Shown: positions 4,644 to 7,075 of the stretch, piece after piece
Numbering within the stretch: position 1 is the first letter of the stretch
How the letters are laid out: every line of letters begins with the position of its first letter
Source of the DNA: a virus
Taxonomy: Duplodnaviria > Heunggongvirae > Uroviricota > Caudoviricetes
DNA: 12,902 nt
Reading direction: 5' to 3' (one strand)
Virus record (IMG/VR): IMGVR_UViG_2671180501_000005
Notes under the pieces: model-generated
The model's database searches: none
Told to the model about the DNA's origin: nothing
The model's input: only the letters and a program-made list of their open reading frames with translations
Translations under genes and position numbers: made by a program

Positions 4644-5137
4644 TGCTGCCCCCACAAACAGACTTCACGCTCAATCTCACGACGGGTCATCAGCCCTTTC
4701 CATTGCTTACCGCCAGCATATGTCCAGCGACGTAGCTGGTCACATGCGCCTTTGATATCGCCCTGGTTTATTTTGCGAAGAAGCGTCGATGTTCTGAAAT
4801 TGCCAGCGCCCACGTTGTAAACGAACGAGTAAAGAGCGCCGCGCGTTGTTTCCGGTATATCGACTTTGATGTACGGGTTAATTTGTCTGGCGACAGTGGC
4901 AAGGTCTTTATTCAGGAGGGCTTTGCATTCTGCTTCGGTATACGTTTTACCGAGCATGATGTCTTTTCCGGTGTGTCCGTGACATACAGTCCATACACCA
5001 ATGATATCTTTGTATGGTATGTAGCTGACACCTTCCAGACCATCGTTACCACCTGGGCCAGTGATTAACACAGATGCTATAGCAACAGCCCCACCACCAA
5101 TAGCAGCTGCAACAGCCTTGCGTAATGATGGCGACAT
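4640..5137 (-). CDS. R: SAR endolysin (phage lysozyme, R21 / rrrD-like)
   Basis: 165 aa; N-terminal Gly/Ala-rich signal-anchor-release segment ([20 protein letters not shown]) followed by a lysozyme domain; matches my recollection of DLP12 RrrD / phage 21 R. Start ATG overlaps the holin stop. Confidence 0.9.
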
Positions 5138-5318
5138 TATTCACCTCTCGCAGCCTTACGCTTGTCTTCTCTTATTTTGAAATACAGATTTGTCAGATAA
5201 GTCAGAAGCCCCAGAAGCAGACTTCCCAGCACACCAATCGCAGCCCACTGTGATGGACTGACCTGATCCAACCACTGCAAAAACCAGTAGCCGGCACTGC
5301 CGGCGGAGGTGCCGTAGG
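5137..5318 (-). CDS. S: Holin (class II / pinholin-like, S21 / essD-like); 5' end lost in assembly gap
   Basis: Resolved C-terminal 59 aa [59 protein letters not shown] match DLP12 EssD (about 71 aa) as I recall it. About 12 N-terminal codons fall in the N run; stop TAA at 5137-5139. Confidence 0.8.
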
Positions 5319-5713
5319 NNNNNNNNNNNNNNNNNNNNNNNNNNNNNNNNNNNNNNNNNNNNNNNNNNNNNNNNNNNNNNNNNNNNNNNNNNNNNNNNNN
5401 NNNNNNNNNNNNNNNNNNNNNNNNNNNNNNNNNNNNNNNNNNNNNNNNNNNNNNNNNNNNNNNNNNNNNNNNNNNNNNNNNNNNNNNNNNNNNNNNNNNN
5501 NNNNNNNNNNNNNNNNNNNNNNNNNNNNNNNNNNNNNNNNNNNNNNNNNNNNNNNNNNNNNNNNNNNNNNNNNNNNNNNNNNNNNNNNNNNNNNNNNNNN
5601 NNNNNNNNNNNNNNNNNNNNNNNNNNNNNNNNNNNNNNNNNNNNNNNNNNNNNNNNNNNNNNNNNNNNNNNNNNNNNNNNNNNNNNNNNNNNNNNNNNNN
5701 NNNNNNNNNNNNN
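5319..5713. other. Assembly gap (395 N)
   Basis: Uninterrupted run of N; true length and content unknown. The long ORFs the track draws through it are artefacts. Confidence 0.99.
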
Positions 5714-5776
5714 GAGTCAGACATTCCCACACAATATTGTGTCAGTGCAAATAACAACCTTCGTCTCAAATCTCGC

Positions 5777-5851
<75 letters not shown>

Positions 5852-5854
5852 ATA

Positions 5855-5930
<76 letters not shown>

Positions 5931-5932
5931 GC

Positions 5933-6009
5933 TGGCCCACCACCGAGGACTCGAACCTCGCACCGTCAACTTAGAAGGTTGATGCTCTATCCGGATGAGC
6001 TAGTGGTGG
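5933..6009 (-). tRNA. tRNA-Arg (anticodon UCU)
   Basis: Minus-strand CCACCACTAGCTCATCCGGATAGAGCATCAACCTTCTAAGTTGACGGTGCGAGGTTCGAGTCCTCGGTGGTGGGCCA; perfect acceptor (with an unusual C1:G72 pair), D and T stems perfect, anticodon loop CTTCTAA. Confidence 0.8.
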
Positions 6010-6010
6010 T

Positions 6011-6087
6011 TGGTGGCCCTTGCTGGACTTGAACCAGCGACCTGGCGATTATGAGTCGCTCGCTCTGACCAACTGAGCTAAAGGGCC
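6011..6087 (-). tRNA. tRNA with CAU anticodon, most like tRNA-Ile2 (lysidine-type, ileX/ileZ-like) rather than elongator Met
   Basis: Minus-strand GGCCCTTTAGCTCAGTTGGTCAGAGCGAGCGACTCATAATCGCCAGGTCGCTGGTTCAAGTCCAGCAAGGGCCACCA; anticodon loop CTCATAA; overall close to E. coli ileX as recalled. Ile versus Met cannot be settled from the anticodon alone. Confidence 0.8.
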
Positions 6088-6173: not shown

Positions 6174-6201
6174 ATAAAAAAACCCGCTCATCGGCGGGTT
6201 T
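6174..6201 (-). terminator. Rho-independent terminator after the ORF6N gene
   Basis: Stem AACCCGC / GCGGGTT (7 bp, plus 6181-6187 and 6194-6200) with a 6-nt loop, followed on the minus strand by a T-run (plus A-run 6176-6181). Confidence 0.65.
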
Positions 6202-6276
6202 AAGCTGTGTGGCGTAGTAACCACTCTTAACAGGATATTCAACTTTTTACGATCGTAAAGTTTTCGGAAAAAATTT

Positions 6277-6846
6277 TTAAAACCGCATCAACCGCTCCAC
6301 CAGTTGCTCTTTACGGGCAACGATCCACCCGTGTTGCTCCAGATAAAATTTAAACCGTTCCAGAGTACATACCATCGCATCGGCGGGTACCTTTTCCGTG
6401 AACTCAACCTGACCGTGTTTATCGAAGTGGCTCAGTAATGCGCATCCATCATTTTCGATAGATGTGTTTTGTGCCGCTGGTGGCTGTTTCTGGTTGAAAT
6501 AACAGTCTTCCAGTTTTTCGAACACTTCCCACGCCTGATCGGTTTCGAGCATTTTGGCGTGACGGGCTGCGCCACGTTCTGTCCAGAGGATGAGGGAGCG
6601 AACGTTACGGGCAATTTTCACAGAAACTCTTAAAGAGTTTTCGTTCTTCAACTCTCGTAACGCATCACCTTCTATCAGGAAAAAATGTTTACCTTCTATA
6701 AACCGTTCTTTGTTTCGATTGAAATTGTTTGTCAAACGCTGGCGCTCTGTTCCGTACAAATCAGCCAGCAGCTCTGTTGTCATGACAGGAAGATGGTTAT
6801 GCGTAAGTGACGGGAGTTTTTCAATAGACGTGCGATTCATAGACAT
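6277..6846 (-). CDS. ORF6N-domain phage protein (cargo gene downstream of Q)
   Basis: Motifs LPVMTTELLADLYGTE, NFNRNKERFIEGKHFFL and LWTERGAARHAKML are characteristic of the ORF6N domain (recalled). Start chosen at ATG 6846 (AAAGGAC RBS, then MSMNRTSIEK); in-frame alternative ATG at 6930 lacks an RBS; the track start at 7038 is probably a non-coding extension. Confidence 0.7.
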   Translation of the reverse strand: MSMNRTSIEKLPSLTHNHLPVMTTELLADLYGTERQRLTNNFNRNKERFIEGKHFFLIEGDALRELKNENSLRVSVKIARNVRSLILWTERGAARHAKMLETDQAWEVFEKLEDCYFNQKQPPAAQNTSIENDGCALLSHFDKHGQVEFTEKVPADAMVCTLERFKFYLEQHGWIVARKEQLVERLMRF

Positions 6847-7046
6847 GTCCTTTCGAATATTTTGATTTACCCCTTTTGAGAGGGTGACCGGGCGCTCAAA
6901 ACCGTCGAAAGTCGGCGGGCGTATTTCCATTGCTGGTATTGTATTAGCCGCACACCCGGTCATAAACCAAGAATTCTGGACACAAAAAAACCACATGGCT
7001 ATCGGGTGTGGATACCGCTTTCGAGGTGTTTTGAGCACCGCGGGGA

Positions 7047-7075
7047 AATGTAAACTGCAAACCTGAAACTGTCAA
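7047..7075 (-). promoter_or_regulatory. Candidate sigma70 promoter for the ORF6N gene
   Basis: Minus strand TTGACA (plus 7070-7075), 17-nt spacer, TACATT (plus 7047-7052); about 190 nt upstream of the ORF6N start. Confidence 0.35.

Follow-up and report, generated by a model that had tools for sequence, protein, structure and literature searches.

An sRNA-Xcc1-family RNA in the leader of a prophage antirepressor gene: a probable c4-like anti-immunity cassette

How is a single gene controlled that stands between a late-promoter terminator and a tRNA cluster, with its own promoter, its own terminator and a long leader? Positions 6,174 to 7,075 raise this question in a 12,902-nucleotide (nt) stretch of Caudoviricetes DNA (IMG/VR record IMGVR_UViG_2671180501_000005), which in its full length is called the window here. 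The original prediction described the gene, which encodes an ORF6N-domain protein, as a self-contained moron of open function with a long structured leader. Our analysis suggests that the region is probably an anti-immunity cassette of the immI type, in which an antirepressor gene would be silenced by a c4-like antisense RNA located in its own leader.

The leader RNA and its complementary sites

All elements listed in the original prediction are present on the minus strand where it had placed them. The leader is not anonymous, since it contains an RNA of the Rfam family sRNA-Xcc1, and its repeats are antisense/target pairs. The features of the cassette, in the direction of transcription, are the following.

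7047..7075, minus strand: sigma-70-type promoter (-35 TTGACA 7075-7070, 17-nt spacer, -10 TACATT 7052-7047)
7039-7025, minus strand: 4-bp hairpin GGUG/CACC with b1 CUCAAAA (7035-7029) in its loop, complementary to b'
7024-7018, minus strand: a1 UCGAAAG, complementary to the a' loop
6984..7011, minus strand: weak hairpin (CCACA 7011-7007 / UGUGG 6995-6991) followed by U7 (6990-6984)
6878..6961, minus strand: sRNA-Xcc1-family RNA, 84 nt (Rfam RF02221)
6911-6905, minus strand: a' CUUUCGA, the loop of hairpin 2 and the variable specificity element
6901-6895, minus strand: b' UUUUGAG, in the junction 3' of hairpin 2
6880-6874, minus strand: b2 CUCAAAA, loop of a hairpin in which the Xcc1 tail (CCCU) pairs with GGGG
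6856-6850, minus strand: a2 UCGAAAG, overlapping the Shine-Dalgarno sequence AAGGA (6852-6848), 7 nt before ATG 6840
ATG 6840 to stop 6279-6277, minus strand: antirepressor-family gene, ORF6N domain, AnrP-like, 187 aa
6174..6201, minus strand: intrinsic terminator of the cassette (hairpin and T run 6201-6180; terminator scan, fold)

The Xcc1 RNA matches the Rfam model with 77.4 bits at 6961-6878, above the gathering score of 53, and covers model positions 1-87 of 87. It is composed of a closing stem, two hairpins, a single-stranded junction on the 3' side and an ACCC tail. Three other matches to non-tRNA RNA families, isrK, c4-a1b1 and C4, are found on the minus strand in the same Rfam scan. 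A U is found at position -1 in 11 of 11 instances of the RNA, and the closing stem is followed by an N-CC(C/A) tail. Both features are compatible with processing by RNase P, as in c4.

The imperfect inverted repeats noted originally were recovered by the repeat search as arms 6891-6902/7028-7039 (12 nt, 92% complementary) and 6898-6911/7018-7031 (14 nt, 79% complementary). Their downstream arm consists of a' and b' of the Xcc1 RNA, and the upstream arm is the b1/a1 site pair. Two further inverted pairs, absent from the original prediction, are located at 6850-6865/6896-6911 and 6874-6880/6895-6901, and the heptamer of 7018-7024 is present again at 6850-6856, beside the start codon. The window thus contains a trio of a' CUUUCGA, upstream site UCGAAAG and Shine-Dalgarno site UCGAAAGG.

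Folding energies were less informative. RNAduplex scans along the window discriminated poorly between sites, and single-sequence thermodynamics of the Shine-Dalgarno region was uninformative (z +0.54). In the window, 8 nt in the 5' strand of the Xcc1 RNA (6951-6958) are fully complementary to part of the leader hairpin (7003-7010). This match was rejected as chance because it is found in 23/71 relatives, against 20.3 in permuted controls.

The promoter and the terminator that had been proposed to flank a single gene are both found. The promoter scores 10/12 consensus positions and is the sole such match in the window, with a chance expectation of 0.06. Transcription would start near 7040. The terminator contains an 8-bp stem with five G-C pairs, followed by the T run. 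The proposed hairpin plus U run in the leader exists at 7011-6984, but it is weak: the stem measures 5 bp with an 11-nt loop, the terminator scan made no call there, and the 61-nt stretch 7041-6981 folds no better than shuffled sequences (z +0.91). It is a candidate for the 3' end of a short RNA of ~57 nt, or for a partial terminator.

The gene product matches Pfam ORF6N in a hidden Markov model search (E 8.8e-21), as predicted, and, along its entire length, phrog_2379, 'anti-repressor' (E 4.4e-85). It shares 49% identity with the protein in the anrP position of L088, a locus of the Gifsy-1 type with isrK, C4, a 45-aa open reading frame (ORF) over C4, and isrJ. The function of the gene is therefore less open than had been stated, since the protein belongs to an antirepressor family of which the Gifsy-1 member, AnrP, has been studied (PMC4825925). 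Among solved structures, no sequence relative was found.

Covariation in relatives and the genes behind the RNA

Relatives were gathered through the protein and through a pattern for the conserved Xcc1 core. Phage contigs yielded 95 unique Xcc1 instances with 64 distinct hairpin-2 regions, or classes. The a' loop differs among classes, and the upstream and downstream sites change along with it. In relative L070, a' CUACUGA is accompanied by upstream UCAGUAG and the Shine-Dalgarno site UCAGUAGG. Phage Nil2 has CUACUUG, CAAGUAG and CAAGUAGG, and Acinetobacter phage 4316 has CUUCGUA, UACGAAG and ACGAAGGAG. A further class combines a' CUUGUUA with UAACAAG. In most instances, 6-11 nt separate the end of the downstream site from the start codon.

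The complementarity was evaluated by permutation. For 71 representatives, RNAs were re-paired with the flanks of other loci, and exact Watson-Crick complements of length at least k were counted.

a' against downstream 75 nt, k>=7: observed 48/71, permuted mean 3.9, maximum 10
a' against upstream 170 nt, k>=7: observed 56/71, permuted mean 9.6, maximum 20
b' against downstream 40 nt, k>=6: observed 53/71, permuted mean 18.7, maximum 32
b' against upstream 170 nt, k>=7: observed 50/71, permuted mean 18.7, maximum 28

The covariation far exceeds the permuted controls, indicating that the repeats are beyond chance. The original prediction had been made to depend on the conservation of the leader repeats in related prophages, and they are conserved. 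Covariation supports pairing of a'/b' with both sites and shows selection for that pairing.

The helices of the RNA are supported as well. Among 55 relatives, 102 double-sided compensatory changes were found, compared to 28 in shuffles, and 83.8% of cells are paired, compared to 73.1% in shuffles and at most 57% with the partner slid. For these counts the full structure was set by hand from the window sequence and then counted, so they are somewhat biased towards the supplied structure. RNAalifold on a plain MAFFT alignment recovered hairpin 1 only.

Other parts of the cassette recur in the relatives. The promoter hexamers are kept, with differing spacers, in L066, L070, L001 and L092, and a promoter with at least 9/12 consensus positions is located at most 85 nt upstream of a1, at a regular distance, in 36/64 classes. 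Most classes also have 5-8 consecutive T beginning 25-30 nt beyond a1. L092 contains tandem Xcc1 modules, at 1163-1247 and 1369-1453, with different a' loops. Five consecutive Xcc1 copies are reported in one Xylella strain and an Xcc1-isrK-C4 run in another (PMC12189769, Table 4).

The 77 distinct proteins encoded directly behind Xcc1 RNAs are almost all of antirepressor types, with Pfam matches to KilA-N (16), ORF6N (16), Bro-N (15), Rha (11), P22_AR_N (8) and AntA (4). In addition, the leader block 7039-6857 has a counterpart of ~87% identity ahead of antB in the Shiga-toxin (Stx) phages Nil2, P13374 and 2851, where it is part of the nin region and far from Q. This recurrence shows that the cassette is portable. 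In Nil2 an annotated promoter stands immediately before the block. Both Nil2 and P13374 have another gene between the C4 and Xcc1 modules, and the Xcc1 module is ahead of antB. We also observed that in P13374 (L104) a coding sequence annotated 'antB2' (49 aa, 2548-2694) and ORF28 on the opposite strand (2355-2549) overlie the leader and the Xcc1 RNA, for which the Rfam match is at 2583-2666. These are probably mis-called ORFs.

A second, related RNA module is located directly upstream of the cassette, on the same strand.

7293-7241, minus strand: c4-a1b1, Rfam 50.1 bits, overlapping isrK
7280-7204, minus strand: isrK, Rfam 77.5 bits, ending in tR'
7256-7249, minus strand: b1 site AUUGGAAC for the neighboring C4 RNA, within the isrK / c4-a1b1 RNA
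7178-7095, minus strand: C4 antisense RNA, Rfam 71 bits
7092-7085, minus strand: b2 site AUUGGAAC of the C4 RNA

Many close homologues of the gene (about 70-77% identity) lack the Xcc1 module, and C4 is located ~60 nt before their start codon. Their C4 a' loop matches an a1 in isrK and an a2 on the Shine-Dalgarno sequence, and b' matches b1 and b2. This is the geometry of the Xcc1 RNA in the window. These equivalent positions before one gene family provide the strongest argument that C4 and Xcc1 do the same job. The C4 RNA of the window itself retains b2 and has no a2/Shine-Dalgarno target of its own within that stretch; the promoter of the Xcc1 module stands where the target would be expected. 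Similarity to the single-module relatives fades where that promoter starts. Possibly this C4 RNA is an orphan, or its targets lie in other prophages.

An ORF of 76 aa lies over C4, from 7174 to 6944, and ends ~100 nt before ATG 6840. In relatives the length of the C4-overlapping ORF varies from 14 to 76 aa, and in P13374 it is fused to a 261-aa ORF. It was rejected as a gene, being unconserved, without a Pfam match, and stopping before the second module in loci of the same architecture. A 44-aa ORF from GTG 7078, also unconserved, was rejected as well.

The proposed switch and alternative explanations

Support for the c4-like explanation within this analysis consists of the elements themselves, their complementarity, the covariation of a'/b' with their sites, the position of a2 on the Shine-Dalgarno sequence and the association with antirepressor genes. 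Together they suggest the following mechanism. The cassette promoter would fire, with transcripts starting near 7040. Their first ~57 nt hold b1, a1, the weak hairpin and U7, and some transcripts probably stop there as a short RNA. Those that read through would include the 84-nt Xcc1-family RNA, which would expose a' and b'. These would pair with a2/b2 just downstream. Since a2 covers the Shine-Dalgarno sequence, ribosomes would not be able to load and the antirepressor would not be made. The upstream a1/b1 would compete for a'/b', either in cis or as the free short RNA, and relieve the block, as IsrK does for the C4-type RNA in Gifsy-1. The expected action of the protein, once synthesized, is the inactivation of a prophage repressor.

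Several of these steps are drawn from analogy with P1 c4, Gifsy-1 IsrK and the 88-nt sRNA-Xcc1 of Xanthomonas. On their model, the RNA would be cut out of the transcript (possibly by RNase P) and act in trans, the upstream copy would serve as a decoy, termination would be partial, and the target of the protein would be a repressor. The sign of regulation, repression relieved by the upstream site, is likewise presumed.

The pairing could also operate without any free RNA. In a purely cis-acting leader switch, the Xcc1 sequence would fold back on the Shine-Dalgarno sequence (off) or be captured by a1/b1 (on). The layout would permit this: b2 starts at the 3' tail of the RNA, a2 is only about 50 nt from a', and the minimum free energy fold of 7041-6835 (-62.3 kcal/mol, z -2.33) pairs the upstream site with a'/b' in cis. 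Alternative cis structures, A and B of isrK-orf45, have been demonstrated at the Gifsy-1 locus (PMC4825925). However, family members accumulate as discrete RNAs of ~80-90 nt in other species (PMC2996969; STnc1160, PMC4825925). The very diverse a' loops, and tandem modules with different a' loops as in L092, would be expected of orthogonal specificities acting in trans. We consider a switch confined to cis somewhat unlikely; cis action is nevertheless compatible with the c4-like explanation and not exclusive of it. Alternatively, the target of control could be transcription, as in P4 and N15. Processed Xcc1 RNA would bind a1/b1 (and a2/b2) of nascent transcripts and enforce termination at the hairpin/U7, rather than block translation. 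The P4 CI RNA acts in this manner, with seqA and seqC flanking it (PMC3632133; PMC4825925 discussion), and the upstream site is at a fixed 25-30 nt before the U run in most classes. The downstream site, however, falls on the Shine-Dalgarno sequence in nearly all members, which a P1-type mechanism needs and pure termination does not. No conserved antiterminator alternative was found, and complements between the Xcc1 5' strand and the hairpin are not above permuted controls. The coincidence of a2 with the Shine-Dalgarno sequence leads us to favor translational control, and we regard termination as an unlikely main mode.

The leader could also be merely structured, or the Xcc1 RNA could be a trans-acting sRNA with host targets, unlinked to the gene behind it. 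The cassette would then be an ordinary moron, consistent with a unit that has its own promoter and terminator and with the many host targets predicted for sRNA-Xcc1 (PMC2996969, PMC12189769). This does not account for a variable loop that, in dozens of independent sequence classes, changes together with the Shine-Dalgarno region of the gene next to it, or for an adjacent gene that is almost always of antirepressor type. The covariation strongly disfavors an ordinary moron, which appears very improbable.

Several points weigh against the c4-like explanation. The whole-sequence duplex between the Xcc1 RNA and the Shine-Dalgarno region reaches -21.9, compared to -15.1 +/- 3.0 for shuffled targets, a modest gain, and the heptamers are short. 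The hairpin/U7 is thermodynamically weak, was not called by the terminator scan and lies in a stretch that folds no better than shuffles, so a discrete short 'decoy' RNA may not exist. Covariation gives neither the sign of regulation nor a choice between cis and trans. The Rfam C4 model has no match at 6961-6878 at E<=1, and sRNA-Xcc1 is in no clan (C4 is in clan CL00128). Homology to c4 is therefore unproven, and the analogy is one of shared topology and target geometry. In addition, published work treats sRNA-Xcc1 as a trans-acting, HrpG/HrpX-controlled sRNA with host targets (PMC2996969, PMC12189769).

The RNA family, the protein family and the c4 principle were already known; the link between them is the new point. 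In the searchable literature, which does not include the main sRNA-Xcc1 paper (Chen et al. 2011), we found no such link, and no target pairing or role in antirepressor control for sRNA-Xcc1. That the RNA precedes an ORF6N gene (APSE phages) or symE (Xanthomonas cassettes) has been remarked on only in passing (10.1101/2020.03.17.996009; 10.1101/2025.06.18.660453). Our analysis proposes a concrete function for an Rfam family so far viewed as a host-targeting virulence sRNA, and would mean that antisense control of the c4 type is built on a second RNA scaffold as well. The numerous a'/a2 pairs found in nature could provide a ready set of potentially orthogonal translational repressors. The same cassette stands ahead of antB in Stx phages including P13374, which comes from the strain of the O104:H4 outbreak. 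Since antirepressors are able to trigger prophage induction, this switch might matter for the induction of toxin phages.

A wider idea is tentative, possible though not the outcome we would expect. The sRNA-Xcc1 family might be an unrecognized second branch of the c4/CI phage immunity RNAs, that is, programmable two-site antisense repressors with a paired decoy RNA. Dozens of orthogonal specificities would then control antirepressors and other toxic genes (symE) across gamma-proteobacterial phages, and the tandem of a target-less C4 and Xcc1 in the window could form a two-tier or cross-prophage anti-immunity network.

Locus setting and comparison with known systems

All relevant genes are on the minus strand of the window, and the late operon of a lambdoid prophage begins in this region. 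In the order of transcription, the features around the cassette are the following.

Furthest upstream, minus strand: RusA gene
7728-7321, minus strand: Q-family antiterminator gene (Pfam E 2.7e-52)
7316-7287, minus strand: pR'-like promoter (promoter scan)
7225-7209, minus strand: tR'-like terminator (terminator scan)
6087-5777, minus strand: cluster of four tRNA genes (Met-CAT, Arg-TCT, Thr-TGT, Gly-TCC), downstream of the cassette terminator and ahead of the lysis genes
Downstream of the tRNAs, minus strand: lysis genes (holin family match)

The short transcript from pR' to tR', the counterpart of the Q-controlled leader RNA of lambda, is the isrK / c4-a1b1 RNA. The leader of the late promoter thus doubles as a target copy for C4. 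The slot of the tRNA cluster (5777-6087) is where Stx phages carry tRNAs and stx, and the tRNA with the CAT anticodon could be of the Ile2 type.

This setting qualifies the original prediction. The unit has isrK and C4 directly upstream, and it is not isolated from Q, since it is located inside the Q-dependent late transcription unit. The term moron holds in that the cassette is autonomous and portable. It does not fit as host-benefit cargo, because the gene is a phage regulatory gene, apparently under the control of an RNA switch.

Exact copies of the protein are found on chromosomes of 4.8-5.0 Mb rich in insertion sequences, with identical gene order. The closest match among E. coli proteins is 87.7% identical, and a protein search of genome contigs gave distant homologues alone, none above 63% identity. 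The C-terminal 70 residues (118-187) recur with 90% identity on otherwise different proteins in L096-L101, which suggests that this domain is shuffled as a separate unit. The 3' untranslated region of the gene (6174-6276, minus strand), ~100 nt long, folds two extra hairpins ahead of the terminator (z -2.35). It occupies the isrJ position of Gifsy-1, though no isrJ match was found in it at E<=1. Among the lysis genes, a 210-aa ORF with a TTG start (5137-5769, minus strand) is an over-extension: residues 151-206 alone match a P21-type holin, and loci identical to this stretch annotate a 71-aa holin instead.

Among known systems, a close counterpart of the cassette is immI of P1/P7 (c4-icd-ant; Rfam C4 RF01695, c4-a1b1 RF03163). 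There, according to PMC12197685 (citing Citron & Schuster 1990), c4 RNA prevents synthesis of the antirepressor by base-pairing around a ribosome-binding site of the ant operon. The c4 system is further characterized by RNase P processing of the operon transcript, immunity specificity conferred in trans and Rho-dependent polarity. Both have an RNA of ~80 nt in the leader of an antirepressor operon, with a closing stem, two hairpins, a variable a' loop, a b' junction and a tail ending in CC(C/A). In both, a'/b' are complementary to an upstream a1/b1 and to a downstream a2/b2 at the ribosome-binding site. Unlike in P1/P7, no icd-like ORF stands upstream, and the site addressed by the Xcc1 element is the antirepressor gene's own Shine-Dalgarno sequence. 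Unlike that of c4, hairpin 1 of Xcc1 is long, with a conserved CUAAUACAAUACC...GGRAAUA core.

The isrK-orf45-anrP-isrJ locus of Gifsy-1 occupies the same slot, right after Q and a promoter/terminator, with isrK followed by C4. There, IsrK is a short RNA carrying a1/b1 that raises anrP translation about 140-fold in trans, an ~80-nt species (STnc1160) is processed from the read-through transcript, and AnrP raises transcription of the antQ operon (PMC4825925). The Gifsy-1 activator is a short terminated RNA with a target copy, which the arrangement in the window resembles. The ORF over C4 in the window has the same two in-frame AUGs, 7174 and 7162, as STnc1160/orf45. Unlike in Gifsy-1, C4 is separated from the gene by an inserted second module that is complete (promoter, a1/b1, Xcc1 RNA, a2/b2). 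The stop of orf45 overlaps the start of anrP, whereas the 76-aa ORF does not overlap the gene start, so translational coupling of the orf45 type cannot apply.

Over its full length, the window element also belongs to the family of the sRNA-Xcc1 of Xanthomonas integron cassettes, an 88-nt RNA whose ends have been mapped and which accumulates as a discrete species in Xanthomonas campestris 8004 (PMC2996969). The P4 CI RNA (seqA/seqB/seqC) and the N15 CA RNA, which controls antirepressor genes, are processed small RNAs, as the Xcc1 RNA would be; they have complementary sites on either side and control lytic or anti-immunity genes. IsrK and C4 have been described as structural homologues of P4 seqA and CI (PMC3632133; PMC4825925 discussion). 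P4 and N15 use premature transcription termination, whereas the downstream site in the window is the Shine-Dalgarno sequence.

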